From contig CAZAKL010000003.1 in assembly GCA_964486025.1 (NCBI GenBank), forward strand, positions 1-56,088: a stretch of DNA of 56,088 nt, written 5' to 3'. The position numbers and the translations under genes were made by a program. Below, piece by piece: positions 61-55,111 of the stretch. A model generated the notes under the pieces. It was not told the origin of the DNA, ran no database searches, and saw only the letters and a program-made list of their open reading frames with translations. Source of the DNA: an uncultured archaeon. Its GTDB lineage: Archaea; Iainarchaeota; Iainarchaeia; JAADDC01. Every line of letters begins with the position of its first letter. Positions within the stretch are counted from its first letter, which is position 1.

Positions 61-510
61 ATGAAACCGATTTACGTGCGACTTGACAAAGAAGATTTGC
101 AGGTTCTTGAACGGCTTTCGGAAGAACTTGGCGTGGATAAATCCACTCTTCTTCGCCTTGCGTTTAGGAAACCTGAAATACTGCTTGCATCCTCATACGG
201 CGTCAGGCACATAAATCTGGAAGATTTTCTTGAATGCTGTGAAGGAAAGGTAAGGGTAAAGCTTGAAATAAAGAACTGCGACGGTTACCTGGTTCCCGTC
301 CTGAAGGCAACTTCAAGGTCACGCTCGCAAGTTCACGTGTATGAGAAGCCTCTGTATATACCCGTAAATCCCGGGGAAATGACTCCCGACTGGATAGACA
401 GGGTAAAGGACAGATATGAACGGGCAAGGGAAAAATTAACTGCGGAAGCAGAAAGCAGAGGATTGAAAGTGGAAGGAGGAGAGTATGTGCGTGGATGTGA
501 AAATTCATAA
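61..510 (+). CDS. Ribbon-helix-helix (CopG/Arc-like) DNA-binding protein
   Basis: The N-terminus KPIYVRLDKEDLQVLERLSEELGVDKSTLLRLAF fits a strand-helix-helix RHH pattern. SD upstream. Confidence 0.6.
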   Translation: MKPIYVRLDKEDLQVLERLSEELGVDKSTLLRLAFRKPEILLASSYGVRHINLEDFLECCEGKVRVKLEIKNCDGYLVPVLKATSRSRSQVHVYEKPLYIPVNPGEMTPDWIDRVKDRYERAREKLTAEAESRGLKVEGGEYVRGCENS

Positions 511-730
511 AAGCGAAGACGAAACCTATGTGATAGTAAAAGACAATGGGAAGTGTGCAGAGAAAGAGAAATATGAGGAGATGAAGAACAAGCTTTCATC
601 AGAGCTTACCGGCAAAGTGAGGTGGTTTTACAGAGTAGGCAGCTGCACGTATGAGTATGTAAACGGTAGATTTGTAAGAGTTCCGACCGTTTACATAGAG
701 GGGGAATTTCGTGAAGGTGAAAATTTTTAA
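485..730 (+). CDS. Hypothetical protein (81 aa)
   Basis: ATG preceded by GGAAGGAGGAG. Overlaps the previous gene by 26 nt, suggesting translational coupling. Confidence 0.5.
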   Translation: MCVDVKIHKSEDETYVIVKDNGKCAEKEKYEEMKNKLSSELTGKVRWFYRVGSCTYEYVNGRFVRVPTVYIEGEFREGENF

Positions 731-875
731 AATCTCAGGCCTTTCAGGCGAAACGCCCGAAGAGGTTGAACAGGAAGTTAACCGCTTCCTGGAGAAACAC
801 CCGGATACCGAGATTAAAGTAGGCGGCAACTTTCTGGTCATTGTCTATGACAGAGAGAACGCGGTAAAAAAATAA
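711..875 (+). CDS. Hypothetical small protein (54 aa, GTG start; below the ORF-track cut-off)
   Basis: GTG at 711 preceded by GAGGGGG. Reads VKVKIFKISGLSGETPEEVEQEVNRFLEKHPDTEIKVGGNFLVIVYDRENAVKK. The stop abuts the hairpin at 876. Confidence 0.4.
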   Translation: MKVKIFKISGLSGETPEEVEQEVNRFLEKHPDTEIKVGGNFLVIVYDRENAVKK

Positions 876-890
876 GCCCCGAAACGGGGC
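866..890. terminator. Bidirectional intrinsic terminator, better formed for the minus strand
   Basis: Stem GCCCCG (876-881) / CGGGGC (885-890) with a 3-nt loop. The A7 run at 866-872 gives a UUAUUUUUUU tail on the minus-strand transcript. Confidence 0.6.
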
Positions 891-891
891 T

Positions 892-911
892 TGTGGGCAG
901 TCATTGAGAAA
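892..911 (+). repeat. 20-nt exact copy of the polB start region (TGTGGGCAGTCATTGAGAAA = 36022-36041)
   Basis: Direct comparison of the two stretches; identity stops abruptly on both sides. Confidence 0.9.
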
Positions 912-949
912 GAACTGAAACGGTGTAAAGGTTCTAGGGGGTTATCTTT

Positions 950-978
950 AATCTAAGAATTCCGGTCGAAAATGTCAA
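950..978 (-). promoter_or_regulatory. Sigma70-like promoter for the predicted sRNA
   Basis: On the minus strand: TTGACA (978-973), 17-nt spacer, TAGATT (955-950). Same TTGACA-N17-TAnnTT architecture as other promoters in the window. Confidence 0.4.
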
Positions 979-1035
979 GACTTTTCCGTATCCTTATTCT
1001 ATATGTAGTGTTACGTGTAATATTTAAGTAACATC

Positions 1036-1067
1036 ATTAAGTATTTATATTAAGTATTTATACTTAA
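1036..1067. repeat. Tandem 13-bp repeat ATTAAGTATTTAT x2 plus inverted repeat TTAAGTA/TACTTAA
   Basis: Copies at 1036-1048 and 1049-1061; inverted repeat arms at 1050-1056 and 1061-1067. The 12-mer ATTAAGTATTTA recurs at 55112-55123. Overlaps the HU stop codon. Confidence 0.6.
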
Positions 1068-1319
1068 AACGAGTTTCCTTGAAGGGTGAAAACGAACGGT
1101 TTTTCTGGAAGGTGATACCTTCATTTCACCGGTTTCAGGATGTTTATACCTTCTACTTTTTAGCCTGACCACATAAAACCGTCCGAAACCCCTTACGGTT
1201 ACCCTGCCGTTCTTCCTGATTTCCCTCTTTATCTCTTCAAAGGTGGTATCTACAACCAGCTTAACCTTTTTCTTGCTGATTCCCGTTTTCTCGGCAACTA
1301 CACTGATTAAGTCTCTCAT
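1050..1319 (-). CDS. hup: HU/IHF-family DNA-binding protein
   Basis: 89 aa. LISVVAEKTGISKKKVKLVVDTTFEEI...VTVRGFGRF...HPETGEMKVSPSRKTVRF matches the HU fold signature. ATGA overlap with pilT. Confidence 0.85.
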   Translation of the reverse strand: MRDLISVVAEKTGISKKKVKLVVDTTFEEIKREIRKNGRVTVRGFGRFYVVRLKSRRYKHPETGEMKVSPSRKTVRFHPSRKLVLSINT

Positions 1320-2362
1320 TTCAACCTCGCTTTATACATCATAACCCTGGACTTGTCATACCCAAGTTCTTGGACTTTATCTTCAGGTATCAGTCCACTC
1401 TTTACGAGCTTCGCAACTGTGAACTCAAACGGCACGTGTCCCTTATCTATATTGTTCATGTAAGTTGAAATCTGTGAAAACTGAGCCTTCAGTATGAGGC
1501 TTTTTACGGTTGGATCTTCGGCGTTCAAGAATTCGTGAACGAGAACTTTCCTGCCGCCGACGTCAAACATTCTAAGACCTAAAACGCCGATGAGGTTTCT
1601 TGCAAGAACCTGCAAGGTGAATTGTTGCTTTTCGGGCGGAAGCATTCCCATCAGCCTTTCCATCGTGTCCTTTGCCGATGATGTATGAAGCGTCGCGAAA
1701 CAAACGTGTCCCGTATCCGCAGCCTGAGTAAGCAGGTCAACTGTTTCTTCGTCCCGAACCTCACCTACAAATATGATGTTCGGGTTTTCCCTGAGGGCGC
1801 TCTTCAATCCCCTCGCAAAAGAAGGTGTATCCGTGCCTACTTCTCTTTGAAGGACTAATCCCTTCCCTTCGTTGAGGTGATACTCAACCGGGTCTTCTAT
1901 CGTTACGACATTTACTGGCATTTCTTCAAGAAGCTGGTTTAGAAATGCAGCCATAACAGAAGATTTACCAGAACCAGTAGGACCTATAACGAGAACTAGA
2001 CCACCTTTCTTGGCTCTTATGCGCGAAAATACCTTTTCTATAATACTTTCCTCTATCATATAGTCAGACAGTTTCCAAATAACCGGCTTCAGCCAGCGGA
2101 ATGTGCAGCAGTAGTTTCTTCCGCCGTATTTTGCGACGTTTAAACGGAAGCGAAGGTCCCCTGCTTTCCAGCTCGTGTCAACATCGCTACTTCTGTCCGG
2201 TAAAGAAAAGACGACTTCCTCCACCAATTCCGAAAAATCCCCTCTCCTCTTCTCAATTACTTCTTTAGATGATATAACCGCCACCTCATCGGGTTTGAGT
2301 ATAATGTCAGAAGCACCGGGATATTTCTCGCACAATTCTTTCAGCAGCTCATTCACGCCCAC
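1316..2362 (-). CDS. pilT: PilT-family pilus retraction ATPase
   Basis: Walker A GPTGSGKSS, Asp box VGEVRDEETV, His box ATLHTSSA. Size 348 aa. Confidence 0.85.
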   Translation of the reverse strand: MGVNELLKELCEKYPGASDIILKPDEVAVISSKEVIEKRRGDFSELVEEVVFSLPDRSSDVDTSWKAGDLRFRLNVAKYGGRNYCCTFRWLKPVIWKLSDYMIEESIIEKVFSRIRAKKGGLVLVIGPTGSGKSSVMAAFLNQLLEEMPVNVVTIEDPVEYHLNEGKGLVLQREVGTDTPSFARGLKSALRENPNIIFVGEVRDEETVDLLTQAADTGHVCFATLHTSSAKDTMERLMGMLPPEKQQFTLQVLARNLIGVLGLRMFDVGGRKVLVHEFLNAEDPTVKSLILKAQFSQISTYMNNIDKGHVPFEFTVAKLVKSGLIPEDKVQELGYDKSRVMMYKARLK

Positions 2363-6349: not shown

Positions 6350-7106
6350 AGTAGTCTTCTCCACCATAGTAGTTAATTCTGCAGTTCTTCATCTGCCTGC
6401 ACACCTTTACTGCTTCCCCATAGTTCCAGTAATTAACGAGACCTTTGAAGTTGAGACCTATTCCCTTTTCATATTCAAGCTTCAGGACTTTAACGAACGG
6501 AATTTCTTCAAGCTTTTCTATTTCCGATAAAGCCTGACTGAAAGATGAATCCTTTAGGGCGTATAGCCTGCTTTTAAAGTTGGAAAGTTTCTGCTTGAGC
6601 GCTGCAACCTGAGCTTGCAGCCCGTCAACTTCTCTTTCCACACTCGATGCTTTACTGTTCAGGTAGAAGTATCCGGCTGTAAAAACGAGAACTGCAGCCA
6701 TGAGAAACAAACTGGTTGTTTTAATCTGTTTTCTATCGAGCCTTTCTATACCGAGCCTCTCAAAGACTTCATTTGCCGGTATCTCGGCTTCGGGAACGAG
6801 CCGTGGCAGGATGTCTTCAACCTCAACTTTTTTCCAGGGTCCCTCGGGTTCCAGTTCGTCAACCTGGAACGTCGGTCCAAAGTCGGATTCAATCCTTTGA
6901 ACGCTTTTTTCCGCAATGCGCAGGTATTCCCCTTCTTTCAGCACCTTTGCAAGGTCATACACCCCGTAAACAGGCATGCCGAAAACGCCTGCGAAAACAC
7001 TCTGAAATTCATTCTTAATAGCGTTCTCAGTTGTCAGAACAAGCGCAGTTTTTGGAGAAACGTTAGGGTCTTCAATTACCTGTCCGTCAACGTAAACAAC
7101 GAGCAT
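6318..7106 (-). CDS. Bitopic pilus-assembly protein (PilN/GspL-like by architecture)
   Basis: ~130-aa cytoplasmic part, TM (SLFLMAAVLVFTAGYFYL), coiled coil, small C-terminal domain. Context only. Confidence 0.45.
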   Translation of the reverse strand: MLVVYVDGQVIEDPNVSPKTALVLTTENAIKNEFQSVFAGVFGMPVYGVYDLAKVLKEGEYLRIAEKSVQRIESDFGPTFQVDELEPEGPWKKVEVEDILPRLVPEAEIPANEVFERLGIERLDRKQIKTTSLFLMAAVLVFTAGYFYLNSKASSVEREVDGLQAQVAALKQKLSNFKSRLYALKDSSFSQALSEIEKLEEIPFVKVLKLEYEKGIGLNFKGLVNYWNYGEAVKVCRQMKNCRINYYGGEDYYEVILGKGKR

Positions 7107-7110
7107 AAAA

Positions 7111-8040
7111 TCAGTCCTCCACCTTTATATAACTGGCCGAAACGTATCCTTCTCTGATGCCCGAAAGAGTGTTTGCAATGATGTGATACCATCCTCCTTC
7201 CCTTCCAAGAATCTTCACCTTCATTCCTCTCTTGAGCCACCCGACAGTTTTTCCGCGACGAGAAGGAATTTCCCTAATCCTCAGATTTACAAGCGCCACG
7301 CCCGTTCTGGGACCGTCAATGGGCAGAGAAACTTTCTTCTCGCCTATCGGTTTAACCTTCTCAAGCTCTTTCGCAACCGTGTAGCTCATAAACTCTGCGA
7401 TTGACATCTTCTTTACCGGGAACTCGGACTTTATCAGCGCAAGCTTGTCAGCAGAGGTCGGGAACACGCCCACGACGAGCTTGCCGTTCACGTTGCGCTG
7501 TATCGTTCTGAACCCAAGGTCGTATAGCTTTCTTACTACCCTCAATCCGGTATCGTAGTTGAAAACACCGATGAAATACACTGTATCAATTATCTGTGGG
7601 CTTGAAACGTTATTAGTCAGCCTGTCTACGTTGCCTTCTTCTATAAGGCTTTTAAACGTCATTTCCCCGGGTTTTACGAACCTTGCGTGGGCAACTATCT
7701 TGTAGTAGCAGTTCATTGGTTTGTAAACGTCAGAAGTTACTTCCTCACCGTCGCAGATGAGCGCAACCTGCGGTGGGAGAATTATTCCTTTCTGAAGAAG
7801 GACTTTGTAGTTAAAGACCCTGTTCACGAGGTCGCCATACTTCTTTATCCTGTTTATGACCCTTTTTTCACCCTCTTTTATCCACTTTTCTTTATTCTGC
7901 TCTATTGCGTCCTGGTAGCCCTTCTTATACCCTTCCTGATACGCTTCCTTTCTTACTTTCTGAACAACCTGGTCAACACCAGCGTAAGCACCGGAAACCA
8001 TGAGAACTGCTATCGTGAAAGCCGAAATCAATTTCCTCAT
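7111..8040 (-). CDS. Secreted protein with a C-terminal SH3b-like domain
   Basis: Signal peptide MRKLISAFTIAVLMVSGAYA. C-terminus GWLKRGMKVKILGREGGWYHI...GYVSASYIKV. ATGA coupling to the secretin gene. Confidence 0.55.
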   Translation of the reverse strand: MRKLISAFTIAVLMVSGAYAGVDQVVQKVRKEAYQEGYKKGYQDAIEQNKEKWIKEGEKRVINRIKKYGDLVNRVFNYKVLLQKGIILPPQVALICDGEEVTSDVYKPMNCYYKIVAHARFVKPGEMTFKSLIEEGNVDRLTNNVSSPQIIDTVYFIGVFNYDTGLRVVRKLYDLGFRTIQRNVNGKLVVGVFPTSADKLALIKSEFPVKKMSIAEFMSYTVAKELEKVKPIGEKKVSLPIDGPRTGVALVNLRIREIPSRRGKTVGWLKRGMKVKILGREGGWYHIIANTLSGIREGYVSASYIKVED

Positions 8041-14139: not shown

Positions 14140-14260
14140 CCGCATCCCCCTTTTTACTCGGACGGGGCGCAAATTTCTGATACCCCACTTCCATAAGCGT
14201 TATGTTAATGTATAATTATAATTAATTATGGCTAACGGGAACGGACAATCGGAGGACGAG

Positions 14261-15811
14261 ATGACTGTTCTTGTCGTTAAAGAGATAAGGCAGGGAAAGA
14301 AGCAGGGAAGCTGGTGGCTCAAAACGGAAAATGGGAACAGTCTCTACACCCTTGACGAGCGGTTTGTAGAGGAATTCAAAAAGGGAATCAGGAAGTTTGA
14401 AGCGAGCGTGAAAGAAGTAAAGAGCAAGAAAGGAAACAAGTTTTTCGTTGCAACCTACGTGAAGGGACTGGAACAGCCCAGAGCCGAAGAAAAGAAAGGA
14501 GAGAAAGCGCAGCCCCTGCCGGACTGGAAGAAAGCCGCCGAAAGGTTGAGGAAGGTTGAGAAAGAGATAACGTCAAGGATTCTCTTTTCCGAGAGGCAGA
14601 CCAGACTTGCGCTGCTTACATCCGTCGTGGGCGGGAACATGATGCTCGTCGGGGACGTGGGAACCGGAAAGTCGGCAGTCGTGGAACTCGTGGCGTCGGC
14701 GTTCACGAGCAACTACGGATATTGGCAGATGTCAAGGTTCACGTCACCCGAGCAGGTTTTCGGTTCTGTTGATCTCAAGGCGTTCAAAGAGAAAAATCAG
14801 CTCATATACAACGTTGAAAGCTTCAGAAACAAGGAATTTCTCATATTTGACGAGTTTCTCTACGCAGACGGAAAGGTAAGGGAAATCCTCAACGACGCTC
14901 TCGTTGCGAGGCGTATATCCCCCGACACAAGGGGACAGATGCCGATAAAGGCGAGAGCGATTTTTGCAACCGGGAACTACATACCTAACCTGACGGACCC
15001 TGAGGTAAAGCTTCAGGGCGACGTAGCCATTATGGACAGAATGAACATCATATGCTTCGTCACGATAGAAAGAGAAGCCGTAAAGAAGGTCATAGCCGAA
15101 GCGTTCAAGAACAGCAAAGTCGGCGAGAGAAAGTTTGAAACGCCGATAGCCTCGATCTCCGACCTTGAATCCGTCAAACAGAAGGCAAAAGAATTGTTGA
15201 AAAACAACGATAAACTCGCCTCTTTCGTTGCAGAGTTCACTCAAACGGTGTTTGAGATGCAGCAGAATTTCTTCCCGAAGGAATACCAAGCCTCCCTAAG
15301 GAAGTTGATTAAAGCTGGTTTTTACGCTGCTTCAAACGCTATCGTGGAAGGAAGAGAAGTAGTTCTTCCGAGGGACTTTTTACTCGTTTATTCCAGTCTG
15401 CACCCGAAGCAGGAAGAGGCATATGTGCAAGCTCTGTCTTCTTCAATGCCCTTTGAGGTCTTTGAGGATGCATACAAGATAGTTAAAGCAGCCCATAAGG
15501 CTAAAGAGCAGGGCATTAGCGCAAAAAAGTTTATCGTTTCCCTTGTCAAAAAGGGTGAGGATTTTTCCCAGCTTGAGGCGCTGATAACGTCAAGCCTGAA
15601 AGCCGTAAACAGCGTCAAGGGAAATCAGCTTGCAGAAAGCTACGCCAAATACTTTAAAGAAGCCGTTAGCTTTGATTCTGTTTCAAAGTGGATAAGAAGA
15701 GGACTCAGGGAAGCAAAAAACGACGAATCCCTTCTTGAGGAAGTAGCTGCCAAAGTTGAAAAAATATCCGAAGAGGAAATTGCCAGAGAGTTAGAAGAAA
15801 TAAAGATGTGA
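14261..15811 (+). CDS. MoxR/RavA-like AAA+ ATPase with an extra N-terminal domain
   Basis: Walker A MLVGDVGTGKSAVV, Walker B FLIFDEF, sensor-1-like AIFATGN. GGAGGA lies 5 nt before the ATG at 14261; the ORF-track start at 14228 lacks an SD. Confidence 0.7.
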   Translation: MTVLVVKEIRQGKKQGSWWLKTENGNSLYTLDERFVEEFKKGIRKFEASVKEVKSKKGNKFFVATYVKGLEQPRAEEKKGEKAQPLPDWKKAAERLRKVEKEITSRILFSERQTRLALLTSVVGGNMMLVGDVGTGKSAVVELVASAFTSNYGYWQMSRFTSPEQVFGSVDLKAFKEKNQLIYNVESFRNKEFLIFDEFLYADGKVREILNDALVARRISPDTRGQMPIKARAIFATGNYIPNLTDPEVKLQGDVAIMDRMNIICFVTIEREAVKKVIAEAFKNSKVGERKFETPIASISDLESVKQKAKELLKNNDKLASFVAEFTQTVFEMQQNFFPKEYQASLRKLIKAGFYAASNAIVEGREVVLPRDFLLVYSSLHPKQEEAYVQALSSSMPFEVFEDAYKIVKAAHKAKEQGISAKKFIVSLVKKGEDFSQLEALITSSLKAVNSVKGNQLAESYAKYFKEAVSFDSVSKWIRRGLREAKNDESLLEEVAAKVEKISEEEIARELEEIKM

Positions 15812-15816
15812 GGTAA

Positions 15817-17364
15817 GTGGGTGTGCTTTACGACTACTTCATGAGGCTCAGGAAAAAGAAAAACGATGTTGAAGACTGGTTTACTTACAGGGTTTCAACG
15901 GGAGCAATCCTTGAGATTTTTTCTTCAAAGTTGAAGGATACAGAACCTGAAAGTGAGGAGATCGGCAGGAACATTTTCACCTACTTCTACGAACCTTCTG
16001 TTTCTATGAAAGAAATAAAAGATGAAGTAAAGAGAGAAGCCGTTAAAAAGTTCATGGGAAGATTCGTAGAGTGGACAAAAGGACTAAAAATCCTCACCAC
16101 CGACGACATAACCAATGCCGTGTCGGCAACGTTCAGTGTTCTGAAGGGTGCAATCGGCTACTACACTACGCTTTTAGAAGTCATAAAAGCAAGGAAGAAG
16201 TTGGAAGAGGTTGGAGATAAAACCGGGTCGGAGGAACTTAAAGAGATTCTGAAGGATGCTGTGAGCGAGATAGATAAACTCATAGAGGAGAGTAGTTTTG
16301 ACCAAGTCACGGGCATGATTGATAGCGCTAACAGGATTATCAAGGAAGCGATCTCTTTCGCGGAGAGTAAGGGTCTCCACAAAGAGTCTGACGAGATGTC
16401 CAGTGTGCTCTGCGAATACGTCAGCCTGTCCTACCTGCCGTCCCAGAAAGAGATACAGGAAGGGATGGAAAGAGCCAGAAACCTCGTGGAAGGCGTCATC
16501 AGAGCTGCGGGAGACAATCCTGCTTCCGTCAGCAACTACGAAAAAGCCATATATACCCTTTACCTTTCAAGGCAGGATCAAAACGTTCTGAAGTATCTCG
16601 GAAACCTTCTTGAGGTTTCTGAGGGAATGAGAAAAAGGGAAATATCGGAGGACCGCAGCACGAAGAGATACGGAAGAGAAATAGACAAAGCCGTTCCGTC
16701 GCAAATAGCCTTTCTGCTTGACGGTGACCTTTCAGACCTTGAGATGAAGAAGATAGCGGAAGGAACCCTGACCGTTTACGGAAGCTCAGAAAAAGAAAAG
16801 GCAGGATACGGACCATTCGTCATGTGTCTTGACGTTTCGGGGTCAATGAGGGAAATGAGGGAAAGGCTTCTTAGCAGGGCGAAGGCGGTGGCGATTTTTC
16901 TCGCCCTAAAGGCAAAGAAAAGGGGAATTCCCTTCATCCTGATTCCGTTTGACAGTGAGCCGAGAAAGGCGTTCATTCTGCTCCCAGACGAAAAGGACTA
17001 TATCAAAAAAGCTTTTGACAGGATAGGAAGGCTGACAGCCTGCGGCGGAACAAACTACACCAGAGCAATAGAAAAGGCACTTGAGGAATCCAGGAAGTTC
17101 TCTGAAAACTACGGCAGGAAACCAGATCTGCTGTTTATAAGCGACGGTAGACCGCATGACGAGTATAACCCCGAAGTCCTCTCCGAAGCTGAGGACTTCT
17201 TTGAATCAAAGGTGTTTGTCGGAATAGAGTGTGAGGTTACAATGGGATTTAATAACTTTTTTGATAAGAGCGTCGTATTCTCCGGTAGCGACTTCCACGA
17301 AAGGATAGCCGAGAGCGTGGACGAACTGCTGGAGGCGGAGAAAGGCAGAGGATTAACTCTTTAG
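15817..17364 (+). CDS. von Willebrand factor A (VWA) domain protein (ViaA-like partner of the MoxR ATPase)
   Basis: MIDAS motif FVMCLDVSGSMRE, GGTNYTRAI, LLFISDGRP. Helical N-terminal ~330 aa. Confidence 0.85.
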   Translation: MGVLYDYFMRLRKKKNDVEDWFTYRVSTGAILEIFSSKLKDTEPESEEIGRNIFTYFYEPSVSMKEIKDEVKREAVKKFMGRFVEWTKGLKILTTDDITNAVSATFSVLKGAIGYYTTLLEVIKARKKLEEVGDKTGSEELKEILKDAVSEIDKLIEESSFDQVTGMIDSANRIIKEAISFAESKGLHKESDEMSSVLCEYVSLSYLPSQKEIQEGMERARNLVEGVIRAAGDNPASVSNYEKAIYTLYLSRQDQNVLKYLGNLLEVSEGMRKREISEDRSTKRYGREIDKAVPSQIAFLLDGDLSDLEMKKIAEGTLTVYGSSEKEKAGYGPFVMCLDVSGSMREMRERLLSRAKAVAIFLALKAKKRGIPFILIPFDSEPRKAFILLPDEKDYIKKAFDRIGRLTACGGTNYTRAIEKALEESRKFSENYGRKPDLLFISDGRPHDEYNPEVLSEAEDFFESKVFVGIECEVTMGFNNFFDKSVVFSGSDFHERIAESVDELLEAEKGRGLTL

Positions 17365-25838: not shown

Positions 25839-26028
25839 AGAGTGGATTTCCGTTGCATACATTCCCAGCTCTTCGGAAGACGCAGTGCTGATTATAGACA
25901 TTGAAAATAGGAGAATCCGCAAAGAACCCCTCAGACAAGGGTCCGTGAAGATTAATAACTTTAAGGGAAAAGTATTTGCTTTCTCAAGCGATTTCTTAAA
26001 AGAGCTAAATGAAATGGCAGTTAAGTAG
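25816..26028 (+). CDS. Hypothetical small protein (70 aa)
   Basis: Overlaps the previous gene by 23 nt. ACTTGACAAA lies ~30 nt upstream. Confidence 0.4.
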   Translation: MGGKMKNKEWISVAYIPSSSEDAVLIIDIENRRIRKEPLRQGSVKINNFKGKVFAFSSDFLKELNEMAVK

Positions 26029-26866
26029 TCCTATCTATTATTCTCTTCAACCTTTCTCTCTTAATAAATCCCAGCCTCTTCATTCTTCTCTTCAGCAGGG
26101 GAAGGGTGTGGGGGCTTAGCTTCCTTTCTTCATACGGCAGGTCCCAGAGAAGCTCTTTCACTATTTCTTCAGGGTCGGTTTCTGAAAGTTTTTTTTTAAC
26201 GTTTTCTTCAAGGGTTTCCCTGAGGTCTTCAAGGAATTCTTTAAGGTCTTCCTCGCTTATCTCTTTCAGCATAAAGACGCTTCCTGTAAGCCCCAAGGTG
26301 TTCACGGCGAGAAGTTCCTCGTAGGGAACGGGGACTCTCTTTTCGTCTGCAAGGTCAAGTATTTCGTCAAGCTCTACCTTTCCCTCTTTAACTATGAAAT
26401 AGAGGTCAACGAGGTCTTTGAGTTCTGCCCTGTCTTCAAAGGCGACTATTTTGTTGACGGCTATGTTTTTGAGGGTGTCAAGATAGAAGTTTTCAACTTT
26501 GCGGGGATTTTTAAGGGGGCGGTCTGCTGCAAGGTCTATCTTGAGCTTGCATCTTCTGTCAACCTGAACATAGAGCCTGCCGAAGGAAACGGTAGAGCGC
26601 TCAACTTCTACTGGGTATCCAAGGTTTTCTATTTCCCCTACTATGACTGGAAGGGCGGCCTTGATGTTTTCCTCTGCCGTGAAGAGGTCAAGGTCTTCAG
26701 AGAGCCTGTGGTGGAAGTAAAACCTTGAGAGTGCCGTTCCGCCGGTCAGATAGAAGGCACTGCCGAATTTCCTTCCAACGGCGTTCAGTATCTCATTCTG
26801 AACCGGGTAGAGAACGGTTGAGTAGTATTCAACTTCTTTTGCAGTTGCAGGTCTTATCCTGAACAT
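26021..26866 (-). CDS. Nucleotidyltransferase, AbiEii/AbiGii toxin family
   Basis: GGTALSRFYFHHRLSEDLDLF is the characteristic N-terminal NTase motif of this family. Size 281 aa. Confidence 0.75.
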   Translation of the reverse strand: MFRIRPATAKEVEYYSTVLYPVQNEILNAVGRKFGSAFYLTGGTALSRFYFHHRLSEDLDLFTAEENIKAALPVIVGEIENLGYPVEVERSTVSFGRLYVQVDRRCKLKIDLAADRPLKNPRKVENFYLDTLKNIAVNKIVAFEDRAELKDLVDLYFIVKEGKVELDEILDLADEKRVPVPYEELLAVNTLGLTGSVFMLKEISEEDLKEFLEDLRETLEENVKKKLSETDPEEIVKELLWDLPYEERKLSPHTLPLLKRRMKRLGFIKRERLKRIIDRTT

Positions 26867-26868
26867 GA

Positions 26869-27267
26869 TTAAAGTCCCGGTGAAAATTTGCGTCCTCTTA
26901 TCTCGTCTATGACCGCTTCTGTAACTTCGCTGACGTCTTCCACTTCGCAGTAGAGGTCAAGGATTTTCTCCTTCAGTTCTTCTGGAAGTTCAATATTTCC
27001 CCTGCCGTCAACGGAAAAGTCTCTGAGTTCCGAGTAGGAAATGCCGAGGTCCTCAGAAAGGGAACTCTTTATCTTTTCTTCCACCATCTCAAGCGGATAG
27101 ACTTCCCTTTCGTTCTTCAAAACCTCAAGGGCAATTTCCCTGACCAGCTCGTCAGGGTCAATGCCGTATATTTCGGCAACCTCAACTGCTTCCTCAATTG
27201 AACCGATTACAATTTTCCTCGTCACTTCGTCTATAAACGCATCCTTCCAGTTCCAGTCTGAAGTCAT
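26869..27267 (-). CDS. Acidic partner protein of the NTase (putative antitoxin)
   Basis: 2-nt gap to the NTase gene on the same strand. No wHTH recognised. Confidence 0.45.
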   Translation of the reverse strand: MTSDWNWKDAFIDEVTRKIVIGSIEEAVEVAEIYGIDPDELVREIALEVLKNEREVYPLEMVEEKIKSSLSEDLGISYSELRDFSVDGRGNIELPEELKEKILDLYCEVEDVSEVTEAVIDEIRGRKFSPGL

Positions 27268-28055: not shown

Positions 28056-28108
28056 CTTTTTCACCCTACATACGGTTCCACTTAACAAATTATTCTATCT
28101 TTTTTGAG

Positions 28109-28129
28109 TTGTCAAGCGACACTTGACAA
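28109..28129. promoter_or_regulatory. 21-bp palindrome TTGTCAAG-CGACA-CTTGACAA (back-to-back -35 boxes / operator)
   Basis: Perfect 8-bp arms. The minus strand reads TTGACA-N17-TAATTT towards the lipoprotein gene. On the plus side, TTGAAA-N16-TATAAT follows. One base differs from the copy at 33858. Confidence 0.6.
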
Positions 28130-28195
28130 TCTGGAAGACTTGAAATCCCATAACCCGTTATTATAATTATTTTTAAAGGTTTAACGAGGGGAAAC

Positions 28196-33803: not shown

Positions 33804-33857
33804 CTTTGACCTCCGTAAAAGTTTTCTCACTTCCCAAGCTATTTCCTTTTTGAAAGG

Positions 33858-33878
33858 TTGTCAAGCAACACTTGACAA
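33858..33878. promoter_or_regulatory. 21-bp palindrome TTGTCAAG-CAACA-CTTGACAA (second copy)
   Basis: On the minus strand, TTGACA-N17-TAGCTT leads into the subtilase operon. 20 of 21 bases are identical to 28109-28129. Confidence 0.6.
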
Positions 33879-34040
33879 TACGATAGGATAGGACCGTATA
33901 TGACCAGGACAGAACAGGGTTGTATTCTGTGTGCAAAATCTGTGGACAAGACTTGACGCATAGTGAATTTAAGATAAATTTAACTTTGGAAGTTTCTAAT
34001 ATTATATGCTATTGGAAATTAGCATTGTCAATCTTAATGT

Positions 34041-34069
34041 TTGACATTGTTGATGTTTTGAAGTAAATT
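34041..34069 (+). promoter_or_regulatory. Sigma70-like promoter of the PIN toxin-antitoxin operon
   Basis: TTGACA (34041-46), 17-nt spacer, TAAATT (34064-69). TGTCAA at 34026-31 gives a divergent -35. Confidence 0.5.
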
Positions 34070-34428: not shown

Positions 34429-34962
34429 ATGGAAAAGGAATCATCAAAGAAAGTTAAACTCACCGTGGTAGTAATTGACGCGTCAAAACTTTACCAGCTT
34501 GCGAGGTTTGTCTGCAAAAACGCGGATAAGCCCGACAAGCTGGACTCGGAAGCTGTGGTGAAAGAACCGCAGAACGTCTGGGAAGTTATACTCGCTGCTC
34601 AGAACAAAAACTACCTGCTGGCAACCACAGTAATGAACGCCAAAAGAGCATGGGAAGCTTACAAAAAGAAGGAACTGGCAGGGAAAATCCCCGAAGAAGA
34701 AATTGAGAAACTCAAAGAACTCTACCTGAAAAACCTTGAACTGCTTCAGCTGGCGGTATTCTCTGAAGAGTGCTATGAAGATATTTTACCAGAATGTATT
34801 GAATTTCTGCAAGACGACGACCCTGAAGCTGAAGATTCCCACGCCCTTGCCCTGGCTCGAGCGCTGAGTGAAGTCGCGGAAGAGGTCCTTCTGTGGACCA
34901 GCGACAAGGATTTTGCGCGGGCAGCTTCGCTGGGAATCAAGGTCGTCAGCAAGCTCATATAA
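34429..34962 (+). CDS. PIN-domain ribonuclease (VapC-like toxin, enlarged)
   Basis: Acidic quartet pattern: VVVIDAS, a mid-region E, EDSHALALARAL, LWTSDKDFARAASLGIKVV. Confidence 0.7.
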   Translation: MEKESSKKVKLTVVVIDASKLYQLARFVCKNADKPDKLDSEAVVKEPQNVWEVILAAQNKNYLLATTVMNAKRAWEAYKKKELAGKIPEEEIEKLKELYLKNLELLQLAVFSEECYEDILPECIEFLQDDDPEAEDSHALALARALSEVAEEVLLWTSDKDFARAASLGIKVVSKLI

Positions 34963-35941
34963 GAAAGACGAAGAAACGCTTGAAGAATGACTTTACGGCG
35001 TGGACGGTCTTGTTCACGCCGCTTTTGAGCGTTTTAACGAACTTTTCTATCAAACTCTCTTCCGTTTTTTCTGAGCGCCTATGAACTTCCTCACCTATTT
35101 CCTGCGGTATGGATTTTTCAGGTTGAGGGGTCTCTCTTGACATCTGTTCAACTATCTTTTCTATTTCTCTGACCTTCTCTGCAGCACTTTCAACCTTTGA
35201 CTCTATTTCTGCCTTTTTTAGTTTCCAGAGGGACTCAAAGTCAACGGCAAGTTCCTCTGCAAGGAATTCTGCCAGCTCGCCGACTTCGGTTTCAAGAAGT
35301 TTTTCTCTTTCCCTCGGCGGTTCAAAGGAAACGTAGGTGATTTCAAGGTCGGCAATCTCTTTAAAGATTTCCTCATCGGCTGGCAGTTCCAGGACTGTTC
35401 CCGGTTCCTGCAGAGAAAGGGGCATTGGCGGGGGAAGTTCCTCGGGGTAAAACTCAACTTCCGGTTCAAGCGGGACTTTTTGAGACAGCGGGAATTCCGA
35501 CACGGACGCACCTTCGGGCAGGGGAAGAGACAGCTGTTTCGGCTCTCTCTCTTCAAGGGGTGCTTCGGCTTCAAACTCGGCAAGCTCTCTAAACGGTTCC
35601 CACTGTTCCTCTAACCTTTCCCTTACCCTTTTGCGAACCTTAAACAGTTCTTCAAGTTCTTTCTCGCTCTCTTTCTTTATCTCGTCCAGTAAAGCCCTGA
35701 GATCGGGTTCAATCTTTTTGAAGATGAGAACTCTCTTTTTCGTGTCTATCCTGTCCAGTATAACCGGAAGATCGCCGAACGCGGCAACCATCTTGACTTC
35801 GTCAATCTGAATCTTCCTCTTCCTGAAGGCGCGGTAGGGGATTTTGACGAAGTCCCCTTTTGCTCTTTTCAGGTAGGAAAGAATTATTCTCTTTATCTCT
35901 TCTTCTCTGCTTATTCCTTTGTGCTTCGCAGGAGAAGTCAT
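34955..35941 (-). CDS. Acidic coiled-coil/proline-rich protein with a hydrophobic C-terminal tail
   Basis: 328 aa. Basic N-terminal ~90 aa, E/P-rich middle, C-terminus VKSFFKRFFVFLI. Divergent from polB. Confidence 0.6.
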   Translation of the reverse strand: MTSPAKHKGISREEEIKRIILSYLKRAKGDFVKIPYRAFRKRKIQIDEVKMVAAFGDLPVILDRIDTKKRVLIFKKIEPDLRALLDEIKKESEKELEELFKVRKRVRERLEEQWEPFRELAEFEAEAPLEEREPKQLSLPLPEGASVSEFPLSQKVPLEPEVEFYPEELPPPMPLSLQEPGTVLELPADEEIFKEIADLEITYVSFEPPREREKLLETEVGELAEFLAEELAVDFESLWKLKKAEIESKVESAAEKVREIEKIVEQMSRETPQPEKSIPQEIGEEVHRRSEKTEESLIEKFVKTLKSGVNKTVHAVKSFFKRFFVFLI

Positions 35942-36020
35942 TTACAGCCCCTTACCCTTTACACCGTTCCAGTATGTTGTTATTATACATTATAGAAAAT
36001 TTTTACAACAGGGGGCACAC

Positions 36021-37442
36021 ATGTGGGCAGTCATTGAGAAAACGCCGGCAGGCTACGAGGTCTATACCAAGAAGGGCGTAAAGTTTCACAAGAGGAAAGA
36101 CGCCCTGTGGAAATATCTGAAAAAGTGCGACAGGGTTTTCGTCGTTGACAGGCTTTCCTTCCTTGAGTTCATGGAAATTGACATTGATGACAAAATAGCC
36201 GAAAAGGTCGTTGACATCTCCGAAGTAATGAGGGAATACTTCACGGGCGAAGAATACAGGGACATACTTCTTGCTCTTGAGGAACTCGGGTTCAACCCGG
36301 CAGACATAAGGCACTCAATAGGCGGGCTTGCGCTTCAGGTAAAAAAGCTTCTTCCCGAGAAGCTGTTCATACTGTCGGCCGAAGAAAGAAGGCTTGCAGA
36401 TGAGGCTTTCTACGGGGGAAGGGCAGAAAACTTCGTAAAGAGAATTAGAAGCCCCGAAGGAAAAATCGTCTGCTACGACATAAACTCTTCCTATCCATAC
36501 GTGATGTCTTCCTATCCCTACCCCGACACGACCGAAAAGCCGCTCTTTTTGAAGAACCTTTCCCCTTCCGAAGTTCAGAGATACCACGAAGCGGGATACT
36601 GCGGTCTGTGCTTCATAGAGGCAGAAGAAAACTACAGGTTTCCGCGCCTTCCCGTGAGAGTCTGGCAGGGTAACGACTACGTGACCTACTACCCGGCGGG
36701 AAAGATAGAAGGCTACTACACTTCTGCAGACGCCGTTCTCTTTAACGACGACGAGTGCATCGTGAGGGAATTCATAGCCTATCCCATGATGGAAAGCCCC
36801 TTCAAGGAATACGTCACCAAGCTCTACCACAGCAGGTTAGAGCTGAGGAAAAAAGGCTCTAAAGGTGAAAAAGTGATAAAAGCGGTTATGAACACGATGT
36901 TTGGAGTTGTTTCAATAAAGAGCAGCGTTTACAGCAACAGGATTCTCGGTGCCTTCATCACCGCCTATCAGAGGCAGAGGCTTTTCAGGGGGATACTGAC
37001 GGCTGACAGCCTGAGGGTGCCGGTCCTCTACTGCGACACCGATTCCCTCTGGGTTTTGCCAAACGGAAAGAGGGAAAAGCTTGAAAGAGCGCTTGGCGTC
37101 AGGAAAGAGAAAAAGTTTGGCGCCTGGGATACGAGATACGACGGCGTAATAGAGATGTTCTGCGTTAGGCCGAAAGGTTATATGTTTACTTTGCTCGGCG
37201 GTAAGACCGAATACGTCTGGAGCGGTTTGCCGAAGAACTCTCTCGTTCTCAGCATTGACGAAAAAGGCATAACTTATGAACTGATAGTTGACCAGTGGAC
37301 GGAACCAAAGAGAGTAAAAGAGTTCCTGCCTGCAGGCGGGGTTGACAGAAGGAAGTTTATCAGCGACGTGTATTCCGTTCCGTTCAGGATCGAGGAAATA
37401 TCTTCCTGCGAAAGGAAGACAGTTATGGAAGTTACAGTTTAA
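36021..37442 (+). CDS. polB: Compact family-B DNA polymerase (473 aa) with a degenerate exonuclease region
   Basis: YxGG motif FYGGRAE, motif A YDINSSYPY, motif B KAVMNTMFG, motif C LYCDTDS, KxY RPKGYMF. Only ~150 aa precede YGGR. AGGGGG SD before the ATG at 36021. Confidence 0.85.
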   Translation: MWAVIEKTPAGYEVYTKKGVKFHKRKDALWKYLKKCDRVFVVDRLSFLEFMEIDIDDKIAEKVVDISEVMREYFTGEEYRDILLALEELGFNPADIRHSIGGLALQVKKLLPEKLFILSAEERRLADEAFYGGRAENFVKRIRSPEGKIVCYDINSSYPYVMSSYPYPDTTEKPLFLKNLSPSEVQRYHEAGYCGLCFIEAEENYRFPRLPVRVWQGNDYVTYYPAGKIEGYYTSADAVLFNDDECIVREFIAYPMMESPFKEYVTKLYHSRLELRKKGSKGEKVIKAVMNTMFGVVSIKSSVYSNRILGAFITAYQRQRLFRGILTADSLRVPVLYCDTDSLWVLPNGKREKLERALGVRKEKKFGAWDTRYDGVIEMFCVRPKGYMFTLLGGKTEYVWSGLPKNSLVLSIDEKGITYELIVDQWTEPKRVKEFLPAGGVDRRKFISDVYSVPFRIEEISSCERKTVMEVTV

Positions 37443-37461: not shown

Positions 37462-37779
37462 TTGAAAGAATTAAGGAAACTGTTTCCCGACTGCGTTGGA
37501 TACGCAAAAGACGGCAGGTTCTACCTTTGCGACGGAAAAGAGGTCGGTGAGAGCTTTCCATACTACGCGTTTCCTAAAGAATACGAGCTTTTGGAAGAGG
37601 AAAAGGCTGAGTTTCTGAAGAAGGCAGGAATTTCCCGTCTTCTCACCGAGAGCAAGCTTGTCGTGAAGTCTACCGACGGATACAGAGTGTATGACCTTGC
37701 AAAAGTGAAAGTGATAGACACCTTCAGCAGGCTTGAAAGAATGAGGGAAGCCGTAGAGGAAGCCATCCAGCTGGAGTAG
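37462..37779 (+). CDS. Hypothetical protein (~105 aa, TTG start)
   Basis: AAGGGGG lies 6 nt upstream of the TTG at 37462. The longer tracked ORF overlaps the polB 3' end. Confidence 0.45.
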   Translation: MKELRKLFPDCVGYAKDGRFYLCDGKEVGESFPYYAFPKEYELLEEEKAEFLKKAGISRLLTESKLVVKSTDGYRVYDLAKVKVIDTFSRLERMREAVEEAIQLE

Positions 37780-40160: not shown

Positions 40161-40772
40161 ATGAAAAAGTTTTGGAAAGAGGACGTTTTAGAAAACATCT
40201 TCAGTGAATTGAACGACGAGCTGAAACACAAGAAAATTAGCATTCCCAGAGAAAGAGAAGAAGAGGGAAGAAAAAAAACTCAGAAATTGTTTTCTGAGGC
40301 TGCCAAATGGGAGGAAAGAGAGGCAAAGAGAGTAGTAGAGGTATTGCATTTGCTGTTTAATGTATTTTGGGAAGAGAAAAAGAAGGAAAGAGAAAAGGCT
40401 GAGATACTTTTTAGCCTTTTAGAGAAGAGACGTATACCTAAATGGGAAGCTATTTTTGTTGCGAAAGTTCTTTTTGACCATTTACTTCCCGCTGAAAAAC
40501 CCGGCAGGTTAATCGAATATTACAATCTGTATGTTCCGATTTATAGAAGAAAAGCTGTAGATAGCATTGCACGATACATTATCTCTGAGCTGATGAAATT
40601 GAAGAGAGTTCAGGTAGTGGAAGATTATAAGGTTGTTCTAAAGAAAGGAATAAGCTCCATAATAATTGATTACAACTGGGGAATCATAGATGGAAACGAA
40701 GGAACGAGTGTTAATCGTTGTAGCTGGGCCCAACGGAGCGGGGAAAAGCACGTTCATAAGAATGCTAATTAA
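40161..40772 (+). CDS. Hypothetical K/E-rich protein (203 aa), AT-rich
   Basis: GGGAGATGAA SD. Its 3' end overlaps the next gene by 83 nt. Confidence 0.5.
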   Translation: MKKFWKEDVLENIFSELNDELKHKKISIPREREEEGRKKTQKLFSEAAKWEEREAKRVVEVLHLLFNVFWEEKKKEREKAEILFSLLEKRRIPKWEAIFVAKVLFDHLLPAEKPGRLIEYYNLYVPIYRRKAVDSIARYIISELMKLKRVQVVEDYKVVLKKGISSIIIDYNWGIIDGNEGTSVNRCSWAQRSGEKHVHKNAN

Positions 40773-41373
40773 AAAGGGGCAGATTGATCCCAAGGACTAT
40801 GTTTGTCCTGACGAGATTGTAAAGAATGAAGGATGGGATCCTTTTTCTAAAGAAGATGTTATAAAGGCTATGCAAAAAGCAGAAGAAATAAGAATTTGCA
40901 AAGTTCTGAAAGGTGAGAATGTAGTAATGGAAACTGTATTTTCTCACCCGTCAAAGATAGACTACATCAAGTTTGCTAAGGAGAAAGGCTACAAGGTAAT
41001 TTTTTTCTTCATAATGACGAGAAACGTGGAAATTAACAAAGAAAGGGTAAAAATAAGAGTTGAAGAGGGAGGACATCCCGTTCCCTTTGATAAGATTGAA
41101 AGCAGATTTAAAAGAAGTCTTGAAAATATGTTGCGAGTAGTTAAGGTGAAGGTTATAGATGAACTATTTGTGATTGATAACACGCAGAACTATAAAATCG
41201 TTGCAAAGGTAGATTTCTCAAGCGGAAAAGTCTGGATAAGTGAAGAAGTTTTAAGTGATGAGACTACCCGAGAAACTTTTGAAAAGCTTAAAGAATACAC
41301 ATCAGCTTTAGAAAGAAAGCCTACAGCTAAACTTAGTAGAGAAGAAAGGGAGAGTCCGCCACTTTCTCCTTAG
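40690..41373 (+). CDS. Zeta-toxin-like / COG4185-type P-loop kinase
   Basis: VLIVVAGPNGAGKSTF, ETVFSHPSK, GGHPVPFDKIESRFKRS. Confidence 0.7.
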   Translation: METKERVLIVVAGPNGAGKSTFIRMLIKKGQIDPKDYVCPDEIVKNEGWDPFSKEDVIKAMQKAEEIRICKVLKGENVVMETVFSHPSKIDYIKFAKEKGYKVIFFFIMTRNVEINKERVKIRVEEGGHPVPFDKIESRFKRSLENMLRVVKVKVIDELFVIDNTQNYKIVAKVDFSSGKVWISEEVLSDETTRETFEKLKEYTSALERKPTAKLSREERESPPLSP

Positions 41374-41412: not shown

Positions 41413-41697
41413 CTACTTCTTAACCTTTTCTGTTTTTTCTTTAAGTTCCTTACCGGGTTTGAAGGCAGGTAGCAGCTTTGCTGGAACTTTTAACTTCTCA
41501 CCTGTTCTCGGGTTTCTTGCTACCCTCGGTGCCCTTTCTTTCATCAGAAACGCGCCAAAACCCCTGATTTCCACCTTGTCACCTTTGGCAAGAGCTTCCG
41601 TTACTACCTCAATGAATGCGTTGACGGCAGCTTCCGCCACCTTCTTTGGCAGTCCGGCTTTTTCTGATACTGCAGCAACGAGTTCGTGCTTCGTCAT
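41413..41697 (-). CDS. hup: HU-family DNA-binding protein (second copy)
   Basis: MTKHELVAAVSEKAGLPKKVAEAAVNAFIEVVTEAL..VEIRGFGAF..RNPRTGEKLKVPAK. TAAGGAGGGAGAC lies before the ATG at 41697. Confidence 0.9.
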   Translation of the reverse strand: MTKHELVAAVSEKAGLPKKVAEAAVNAFIEVVTEALAKGDKVEIRGFGAFLMKERAPRVARNPRTGEKLKVPAKLLPAFKPGKELKEKTEKVKK

Positions 41698-41707
41698 GTC
41701 TCCCTCC

Positions 41708-42076
41708 TTAAAACTCAATGTCATCTATGCTTTCTTCTTCGTCTTCTTCTCTTTTAGGATCAAGGGCTTTAACCCTCAACGCCACAACTTCTATCTTTGA
41801 CCTCTTTTCGCCGTTCTCGTTTTTCCAGGAATTCTGCCTCAGCCTTCCTTCAACGAGTATTCTATCGCCTTTTAAAAATCTTTCCACCACCCTGTCTGCT
41901 GCATCGCCCCAGACGACGCAGTCAATGAAGAGAGTATCGTCCTGCCAGTTTCCCTTTTTATCTTTGTATGGCGTATTTACGGCTATCCTGAACCTTGAAA
42001 AAGGATTCCCCTTCTGGGTGTGGGAAAGTTCTGGGTCCGAAACGAACCTACCAATCAAAAACACTCTGTTCAACAT
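41708..42076 (-). CDS. ssb: Single-stranded DNA-binding protein
   Basis: OB-fold start MLNRVFLIGRFVSDPEL...FRIAVN, and acidic tip EEDEEESIDDIEF. GGAGGAGAGAA lies before the ATG at 42076. Confidence 0.9.
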   Translation of the reverse strand: MLNRVFLIGRFVSDPELSHTQKGNPFSRFRIAVNTPYKDKKGNWQDDTLFIDCVVWGDAADRVVERFLKGDRILVEGRLRQNSWKNENGEKRSKIEVVALRVKALDPKREEDEEESIDDIEF

Positions 42077-51703: not shown

Positions 51704-52738
51704 GTGGACCTGAGAGAAATTCTCGCCCTTGCGGTTGAAATGAGAGCGTCGGACGTCCACGTTAAGAGCGGTCTACCGCCCGCTTTCAGGGTGAACGGGA
51801 GGGTGGATTTTCGCGGAAAACCGCTTTCTTCCGAGCAGGTCAGCAGGTTTATATCTCAGGTCGTTACTTCTGAAGTCAAAAAAGCCGAACTCACCAAAAA
51901 GGGCGAGGTGGACGTTTCATATTCTTCAGGAGGTAGCCGATTCAGGGTAAACGTCTTCAGGGAACAGGGAAAATACTGCATGGTCTTCAGAAGACTTCCC
52001 GAGGAAGTGCCTGAACTGGGACAGCTCGGTCTTCCACAGGAGCTGCGCGGACTTGCCCTCATTCCCAGGGGAATGGTAGTCGTTACGGGCATTACGGGTT
52101 CCGGTAAGTCCACCACGCTGGCTGCAATGCTTGAAGTGAGAAACCGGGAAAGAGAGGAAGTCGTAATCACGATTGAAAATCCGGTTGAATACGTCTTTAA
52201 ACCGAAGAAGTGTCTCTTCTACCAGAGGGAAGTGGGAAGGGACACCCAGTCCTTTTTCTCCGGTCTCGTCGCGGCTCTGCGTGAAGACCCGGACGTGATA
52301 CTGGTTGGCGAGATAAGGGATTCTGAGCAGATGAACACGGCGCTGTCGGCTGTTGAAACCGGACACGCGGTTTTTACAACGGTTCACGCCGTTGACGCCG
52401 TTTCAACGTTCAGCAGAATTCTCTCGTTCTACCCTGCAGCCGATAGGGAAAGGGTCGCATATTCTCTCTCTGTTTCCCTGAAGGCGGTCGTTTCTCAGAG
52501 GCTCGTTCCGTCGGTTGAAGGAAGCAGAATTGCCGTAGTGGAACTTCTTGAAGTTGACGGAGAGGTCAGTAAGGCTGTCTCTTCCCTTGACTTTGACAGG
52601 CTGAAGAACATCCTCAGAGAAAGAGGAAAAGATTTTGACAGCGTGGCCTTCAGACTCTATGAGGAAGGAAAAATAGACAGGGAAACCCTGTTGAGAGTTT
52701 CTTCAAACCCTAAAGAGGTGGAAAGGTGGCTTATGTAG
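51704..52738 (+). CDS. PilT-type hexameric ATPase at the end of the T4SS block (occupies the VirB11/TrbB role?)
   Basis: The N-terminus LAVEMRASDVHVKSGLPPAFRVNG is classical PilT. GITGSGKSTT, VGEIRDSEQM, TTVHAVDA. Confidence 0.85.
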   Translation: MDLREILALAVEMRASDVHVKSGLPPAFRVNGRVDFRGKPLSSEQVSRFISQVVTSEVKKAELTKKGEVDVSYSSGGSRFRVNVFREQGKYCMVFRRLPEEVPELGQLGLPQELRGLALIPRGMVVVTGITGSGKSTTLAAMLEVRNREREEVVITIENPVEYVFKPKKCLFYQREVGRDTQSFFSGLVAALREDPDVILVGEIRDSEQMNTALSAVETGHAVFTTVHAVDAVSTFSRILSFYPAADRERVAYSLSVSLKAVVSQRLVPSVEGSRIAVVELLEVDGEVSKAVSSLDFDRLKNILRERGKDFDSVAFRLYEEGKIDRETLLRVSSNPKEVERWLM

Positions 52739-55057: not shown

Positions 55058-55111
55058 CCTACACCTCCTGTGCTGTCCGTTGTAAGTAATTATACCATAT
55101 TGTAGCACAGA

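Follow-up and report, generated by a model that had tools for sequence, protein, structure and literature searches.

Near one end of the DNA stretch examined here, 56,088 bases of contig CAZAKL010000003.1 (assembly GCA_964486025.1; "the window" hereafter means this stretch at its full length), a non-coding gap probably carries a genuine gene, specific to its lineage, for a trans-encoded antisense RNA with two dedicated seeds. This prediction is drawn from the architecture of the locus and from its complementarity to two divergent genes that lie 35 kb away. One seed is perfectly antisense to the start of polB, which encodes a family B DNA polymerase, and the other is antisense to the leader of the neighboring gene, orf328. 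If the prediction holds, a single small RNA (sRNA) would restrain the polymerase of an apparently linear, protein-primed replicon together with the gene beside it. A sequence-only reading had already proposed the promoter, the polB seed, and the terminator of this unit; the orf328 target, the terminator held in common with a neighboring HU/pilus operon, and the evidence for a linear replicon go beyond it.

The promoter that had been read on the minus strand (TTGACA-17-TAGATT, 978-950) is recovered by a promoter scan at precisely these positions. Perfect sites of the form TTGACA-N16-18-TAnwwT are rare, with four in the window versus about 0.3 expected in the 112 kb of both strands (our own estimate), and the other three (14-42 and 34041-34069 on the plus strand, and 28115-28087 on the minus strand) directly precede a Shine-Dalgarno (SD) sequence and an ATG. 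The intrinsic terminator with a U tail that had been placed at 890-866 is likewise confirmed, this time by a terminator scan, which finds an 8-bp stem in the minus-strand hairpin AAGCCCCGTTTCGGGGCTT, then ATTTTTTTAC, at 892-874. The minus-strand sequence after the hairpin is ATTTTTTT, and the T tail fits this strand only, as the plus strand has TTGTGGG after the hairpin. A promoter and a Rho-independent terminator within a non-coding gap are the marks of an independent transcription unit, and both are present in silico. From this architecture, which is observed directly, we infer that the unit is transcribed and where its RNA begins and ends. The scan found no minus-strand terminator between the HU stop codon (1050) and position 892. 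Transcription of the HU/pilus operon should therefore continue across the seeds, and its transcripts would also end at the 892-866 terminator.

At the locus itself, a 19-aa open reading frame (ORF) on the minus strand and a 20-aa ORF with a TTG start on the plus strand were considered and rejected, each being without a usable SD. The covariance models of Rfam 15 gave 0 matches in the whole window at gathering thresholds, the best sub-threshold match at the locus being asX2 on the opposite strand (19 bits vs. a gathering score of 70), and a blastn search of window positions 700-1400 against plasmids returned no match. Directly upstream of the sRNA promoter, AT-rich TTAAGTATTTATA tandem repeats span the HU stop codon (1018-1064), and a similar copy (82% identity) is present toward the opposite end (55107-55140). 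These repeats might be an UP element, or a site for partition or for an architectural protein.

The seed directed at polB (seed B) is the DNA sequence TGTGGGCAGTCATTGAGAAA, which a search of the whole window finds on the plus strand at 892-911 and 36022-36041 only. The match to the polB start is therefore exact, as had been claimed. No other exact repeat in the window, whether direct or inverted, reaches this length, and the next three measure 17, 17, and 16 nt. No third copy is present in the window with 3 mismatches or fewer, and 100 dinucleotide shuffles yielded 0 matches. The abrupt end of identity on both sides is evident from the flanking bases, which are T at 891 versus A at 36021, and G at 912 versus A at 36042. 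Similarly, the chance expectation given earlier (order 1e-3) agrees with our own estimate of 1.4e-3 for a direct exact 20-mer in 56 kb (~N^2/2/4^20). Because both repeat loci are identical in independent assemblies (L001, L010, and L011), the repeat is not an artefact of assembly.

A second seed (seed A) emerges from local alignment of positions 840-1060 with 35880-36120 in both orientations, which returns an inverted match in addition to the direct 20-mer. Here, plus-strand positions 914-940, ACTGAAACGGTGTAAAGGTTCTAGGGG, match the reverse complement of approximately 35948-35974, ACTGGAACGGTGTAAAGGGT-AAGGGG, which is the 5' leader of orf328 through its SD. The ATG of orf328 stands at 35941, 6 nt after this SD. 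The single difference between seed A and its target is a transition, such that pairing is kept as G·U. From 5' to 3', the RNA presents CCCCCU (941-936), seed A (931-914), 2 unpaired bases, seed B (911-892), and the terminator. The target sites of the two seeds are 48 nt apart, together fall within 86 nt, and belong to one divergent control region. Relative to these targets, one patch of the RNA is direct (seed B) and the other is inverted (seed A), and consequently a single minus-strand RNA is antisense to both divergent mRNAs. A perfect minus-strand TATAAT (35994-35989), read by eye, would drive transcription of the orf328 leader. The promoter-seed-terminator architecture and the antisense relation to the polB start, both proposed earlier, are upheld, and the second seed provides new and independent support for the antisense interpretation.

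Both pairings stand out statistically. The 53-nt body of the RNA was scanned against both strands of the window for contiguous helices, with the cis-antisense self-match set aside. The longest trans helices are those with polB +2 to +21 (20 bp, 0 G·U) and with the orf328 leader (18 bp, 1 G·U), and the third-ranked helix, formed with purine-rich coding sequence, has 16 bp with 2 G·U. When the half that holds seed A (the 5' 32 nt) is taken alone, the longest background helix is 12 bp among 1866 overlapping 120-nt windows. Cofolding gave a net binding energy of -38.0 kcal/mol for the polB 5' segment (-14.9 +/- 3.2 for shuffled RNA bodies, n=200) and -33.7 kcal/mol for the orf328 5' segment (-16.7 +/- 3.0, n=200), and the lowest energy among shuffled bodies was about -25 kcal/mol with either target. 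A scan of the whole window with RNAduplex ranks polB first among trans sites at -46.5 kcal/mol, whereas imperfect long duplexes elsewhere reach -41 kcal/mol, compared with -39.2 for orf328. Helix length and cofolding with shuffles were used because such long imperfect matches mask the orf328 site.

The seeds are also predicted to be accessible. In the computed fold, the terminator hairpin is the sole stable structure, and the 53-nt body is nearly unpaired (-2.0 kcal/mol). This body is poor in G (5 G in 53 nt) and ranks with the least structured 4% of 53-mers in the element. An accessible seed is expected of a trans-encoded sRNA, and in silico the RNA offers 20 bp at polB and 18 bp plus an anti-SD at orf328.

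Table 1. Positions of the candidate RNA gene, its proposed targets, and related features of the replicon (window coordinates unless another sequence is named)
Feature	Position	Strand	Remarks
-35 box TTGACA of candidate sRNA promoter	973-978	-	Promoter scan
-10 box TAGATT	950-955	-	Promoter scan; spacer 17 nt
Predicted non-coding RNA, ~78 nt	866-943	-	Start taken from -10 position, 943 +/- 3; 3' end within 873-866
Anti-SD CCCCCU, near RNA 5' end	936-941	-	Pairs in cofold with AGGGG of orf328 SD
Seed A	914-931	-	18 nt antisense to orf328 leader; one difference, a G·U pair
Seed B	892-911	-	20 nt, perfect antisense to polB mRNA +2 to +21
Intrinsic terminator	866-892	-	8-bp stem, 6 G-C pairs, UUU loop (892-874); U tract 873-866
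Target 1: UG of polB AUG plus codons 2-7	36022-36041	+	Pairs with seed B
Target 2: orf328 5' leader	35948-35973	-	Seed-A site 35973-35956; SD AAGGGG 35953-35948
polB	36021-37442	+	473-aa family B DNA polymerase, protein-primed type; PF03175, E = 1.3e-18
Predicted polB promoter TTTACA-17-TATTAT	35958-35986	+	Spacer 17 nt
polB SD AGGGGG	36010-36015	+	Sequence
orf328	34955-35941	-	Divergent from polB; predicted N-terminal winged-helix-like domain, then long helices
Ribbon-helix-helix (RHH; CopG-like) gene	61-510		Weak score; ~0.4 kb from RNA locus
HU paralogues	1050-1319 and 41413-41724		Two copies on the element
PilT/VirB11-like T2SSE ATPase	51704-52738		Part of type IV secretion set
Source-contig ends	L133 1-293, L010 11320-11439		Just outside window positions 56088 and 1

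The identity of the first target, claimed to be polB with the N-terminus MWAVIEK, is borne out by protein searches. Its product matches PF03175, the "organellar and viral" type of family B polymerase, from profile position 198 onward, and it also matches PHROGs DNA-polymerase families and polymerases in the PDB. The sequence has YxGG, DxxSxYP, KxxxNxxxG, and YCDTDS, with motifs A, B, and C intact, and no Exo I or Exo II motif is recognizable by eye. With polB as the tblastn query, neither PLSDB plasmids nor INPHARED phages yielded a match; GTDB genomes gave one distant and uninformative match, and IMG/VR gave none. Among 5.8 billion clustered proteins, the family has one other member, a 457-aa protein from hydrothermal-vent metagenomes (P0002) that is 48% identical and begins with MWVAIDR. 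A divergent homologue of orf328 also precedes the P0002 gene, and the synteny of orf328 and polB is kept in L003. Because both the N-terminus and the synteny are conserved in a relative with only 48% identity, the copy at 36022 can be taken as native and that at 892-911 as derived.

Less can be said about the second target. The orf328 protein has no match in Pfam, PHROGs, NCBIfam, or PDB sequence searches. Its single-sequence AlphaFold model is of low confidence overall and is confident only for residues ~10-80, and its Foldseek matches are weak and confined to winged-helix structures (E > 0.27). As a matter of speculation, the product might be a terminal protein or an initiator.

Other repeats also involve this part of the replicon. 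The three longest exact repeats after the 20-mer each have one copy in the 35.8-37.7 kb region (35801-35817, 36361-36376, and 37681-37707, with partners at 8847, 12161, and 6942-6968), and two of the three are sense-to-sense and in frame. The peptide KIQID is common to orf328 and a secretin. Likewise, Y-x-VYDLAKV is common to the ORF at 37462-37779 and a 262-aa gene of the pilus operon, where 24/27 nt are identical.

The distribution of the locus can be followed only a short way. It is identical in the record of the window (ENA ERZ27262635, contig k141_64017) and in the Logan assembly of SRR7968109. The relative that carries this polymerase family was recovered as a composite of L003, L130, and L131, amounting to 24.4 kb. 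Between orf328/polB and the gene at 53515-54264 this composite is collinear with the window, and it has no RHH operon, no counterpart of the first HU gene, and no pilus region. The adjacent PilT-like ATPase led to three further sequences (L006, L008, and L009), which have the pilus operon in common with the window and lack the HU/sRNA end; a different gene set occupies the corresponding end in L006, in L009, and in the P0010 contig, whose NCBI name is Persephonella sp. A metagenome scan was made with the degenerate 20-mer TGTGGGYAGYSATTGASARR, intended for second copies of the polB start of the window and of the relative. It produced at least 118 chance matches in unrelated contigs, the pattern being too loose, and the known L004 locus was not among the matches listed. 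Overall, the RNA locus looks lineage-specific by this comparison of sequences, and the relatives of the replicon point to Aquificota.

The start region of polB differs between the two elements. In the relative (L003 2830-2852), the ATG lies ~10 nt past a -10-like TATGAT/TATTAT and has no SD, making the gene nearly leaderless, and the palindrome TGTTATGATATTATAACA overlaps its promoter or -10 box. In the window, insertions relative to this arrangement create a 27-nt leader with the SD AGGGGG.

A mechanism can be outlined on this basis. The consensus sigma-70-type promoter (978-950) would be constitutive and would make a minus-strand RNA of ~78 nt that ends at 892-866. Seed B would cover polB +2 to +21, taking in the start codon and the first codons, inside the footprint of the initiating ribosome. 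On the divergent orf328 mRNA, seed A together with the anti-SD would cover the leader and the SD. Each duplex would be expected to block 30S binding and to lower translation and probably mRNA stability, and duplex-dependent decay is possible as well. The polymerase and its divergent neighbor would in this manner be co-repressed by one RNA. Because the dose of the RNA would track that of the replicon, the outcome would be negative feedback on replication, serving in copy-number or incompatibility control, and read-through from the HU/pilus operon could act as a second input. We infer both the repression and its physiological role from the complementarities and from the predicted accessibility of the seeds.

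Several points weigh against a functional RNA. Where transcription starts is a guess for both the sRNA and orf328, and RNAduplex energy by itself leaves the orf328 site within the tail of the background. The three assemblies are identical at the locus, with zero sequence variation. The 24.4 kb of the relative hold no above-background helix to its own polB and orf315 start regions, and this relative is without the genes that flank the sRNA locus in the window. Finally, a perfect identity of 20/20 is also compatible with a DNA change so recent and free of selection that no difference has accumulated.

This last point leads to the most serious alternative, in which the locus is a non-functional scar of recombination or template switching, formed when illegitimate recombination placed copies of two short pieces from the polB/orf328 control region in the gap, recently enough to leave them almost unchanged, and in which these pieces serve no regulatory RNA. 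The simplest form of this idea, a relic of the polB 5' end as suggested in the sequence-only reading, does not predict one direct and one inverted patch. A more elaborate scar would need two patches with four sharp borders, placed 2 nt apart and with one of them inverted. It would also require that both patches cover translation-initiation regions by coincidence, and that both be antisense relative to a promoter and a strand-specific terminator that bracket them exactly. The lone difference in seed A is, in addition, a transition that preserves pairing as G·U. Against these demands stand the identities of 20/20 and 17/18, as for a young event, and the lack of an equivalent in the sole relative with this polymerase family. 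The locus is also ~1 kb from the end of the replicon, and in our view recombination is frequent at the ends of linear replicons; each of the next three longest exact repeats likewise has a copy in 35.8-37.7 kb. Taken together, a scar appears unlikely, though it deserves to be kept in mind.

It is considerably less probable that the two boxes, as the DNA of seeds A and B might be called, function without RNA pairing as duplicate operators or decoys for the orf328 product or for the RHH protein (61-510). Such a role would suit the overlap of box A with the predicted -35 hexamer of polB (35958-35963), the presence of the weak-scoring RHH (CopG-like) gene ~0.4 kb away, and the winged-helix-like N-terminal domain in the orf328 model. 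However, neither box is palindromic or internally repeated, and box B falls within polB codons 1-7. The layout of the boxes also differs, as they are 48 nt apart in the same orientation at one locus versus 2 nt apart and inverted at the other, and exact conservation over 18-20 nt generally exceeds what an operator needs. Lastly, the notion that the 20-mers are an attachment-site core, left as direct repeats by integration or cointegrate formation of a 35-kb segment, accords with their being direct repeats 35 kb apart and with the two HU paralogues on the element, but it is largely refuted and hardly credible, given that there is no integrase, recombinase, or transposase in the ~65 ORFs scanned and no tRNA gene in the window, that the orf328/polB junction at 36022 is syntenic in L003 despite 48% polymerase identity and hence is not an insertion junction, and that the second, inverted patch is left unexplained.

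The proposed role of the dual-seed RNA depends on the kind of element that carries it. The source contig is 56,501 bp long, and its final 120 bases (56382-56501) recur as a perfect reverse complement at 174-293. At the left contig end, 173 further bases, rich in G and T, lie outside the inverted repeat. The window coincides exactly with the unique DNA that the two 120-nt copies of the inverted repeat enclose. Terminal inverted repeats together with a polymerase of this kind are the signature of protein-primed linear replicons, including phi29, PRD1, adenovirus, and fungal linear plasmids. The terminal inverted repeats and the PF03175 polymerase of the present element therefore suggest a linear replicon with protein-primed replication.

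The remaining gene content includes a RecD2-like helicase, SSB, two HU proteins, and a Toprim primase-like protein. A type IV secretion set is represented by a VirB4-like TraG P-loop ATPase, a CagX-like protein, and a TrwB-like coupling protein, besides the ATPase listed in Table 1, and a secretin/PilT-type pilus operon is also carried. Genes for a MoxR-like AAA ATPase and VWA pair, an AbiEii-type nucleotidyltransferase toxin, which has a small ORF upstream, and a zeta-toxin-like kinase (all within 14228-17364, 26021-27267, and 40690-41373) look like accessory, defense, or addiction modules. A 52-nt repeat with 73% identity is present at 28079-28130 and 33828-33879. Its core, TTGTCAAGCnACACTTGACAA, is a palindrome made of two back-to-back TTGACA -35 boxes; the repeat probably marks divergent promoters, perhaps with an operator in common. 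In addition, the 21-nt inverted repeat CGTAAATCCCGGGGAAATGAC, which is 95% complementary, has one arm inside the RHH-like gene (363-383) and the other inside an SH3-domain gene of the pilus operon (7658-7678).

Given this setting, it can be proposed tentatively that the RNA determines copy number and incompatibility for a linear conjugative plasmid that a vent thermophile replicates by protein priming, and that it would do so by co-repressing the polymerase and a divergent partner that may be a terminal protein or initiator. This more specific proposal is possible, although on balance doubtful. To our knowledge, how copy number is set in protein-primed linear replicons such as phage-like elements, organellar plasmids, and yeast killer plasmids is poorly understood. 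The last of these have been used for orthogonal replication. Classical antisense control of plasmid replication is cis-encoded and is aimed at Rep initiators or primers, so a trans-encoded RNA that restrains a polymerase and its partner gene would, if real, be a new solution to the problem of copy-number control. We know of no earlier RNA-based control for a protein-primed replicon, and a literature search yielded neither an account of this element nor a case in which a trans-encoded RNA controls a protein-primed polymerase. Furthermore, the sRNA seems to have been assembled out of copies of the very sequences it would target, which bears on the origin of new sRNAs. The replicon itself is also of interest, since the combination of terminal inverted repeats, conjugation and pilus genes, and a family B polymerase without recognizable Exo I/II motifs in ~56.5 kb is unusual for bacteria.

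Among known regulators, the trans-encoded sRNAs offer the nearest match in design. Like them, the candidate has its own promoter and a single-stranded seed beside a Rho-independent terminator with a U tail, its gene is far from its targets, and pairing is directed to the SD (orf328) and to codons 1-7 (polB). Members of this class block initiation through pairing at the SD or inside the first five codons, and RybB acting on ompN is reportedly one example. In contrast to the usual 7-12 imperfect base pairs of this class, complementarity here is near-perfect over 18-20 bp. Two further differences are that two dedicated seeds serve two divergent genes in one module, and that regulator and targets reside on the same mobile replicon.

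Other RNAs share individual features. The immunity RNAs c4 of P1/P7 and CI of P4 are ~70-80 nt long and use two short seeds, with targets that include a ribosome-binding site. The candidate resembles them in having two seeds for target transcripts of the same element. However, the c4 and CI RNAs are processed from the transcript that they regulate and direct both seeds to that one transcript, whereas the candidate has an independent promoter and two different, divergent mRNAs as targets. Some sRNAs, such as MicL and DapZ, are located in 3' untranslated regions and have an internal promoter; the candidate similarly combines its own promoter with a terminator that would be common to the upstream HU/pilus operon. 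The trans-encoded type I antitoxin RNAs IstR-1 and OhsC, which act on tisB and shoB, pair perfectly over ~18-21 nt, a stretch of complementarity similar in length to that found here. Unlike for MicL, DapZ, IstR-1, and OhsC, the targets in this instance are genes of the replication region and not envelope or toxin genes, and the locus is without a toxin ORF.

The plasmid countertranscripts CopA of R1, RNA I of ColE1, and RNAII of pMV158 provide the closest parallel in purpose. These are small antisense RNAs whose dose follows that of the replicon and which inhibit expression of replication proteins, and the candidate is presumed to be constitutive and predicted to act in the same manner. In pMV158, RNAII acts jointly with the RHH repressor CopG in copy-number control (PMC4485353). 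An RHH (CopG-like) gene, although a weak-scoring one, adjoins the RNA gene here as well. The differences are nevertheless substantial. CopA, RNA I, and RNAII are cis-encoded, fully complementary to their targets, and structured to form kissing loops, whereas the gene described here (866-978) is 35 kb from its targets (35948-36041), and its RNA is predicted to have the terminator as its only hairpin and to carry unstructured seeds. Moreover, the target is not a Rep protein or a primer but the replicative polymerase of an apparently linear, protein-primed replicon. By analogy, then, the locus would work like a trans-encoded base-pairing sRNA, while its purpose would resemble that of the countertranscripts that control plasmid copy number.

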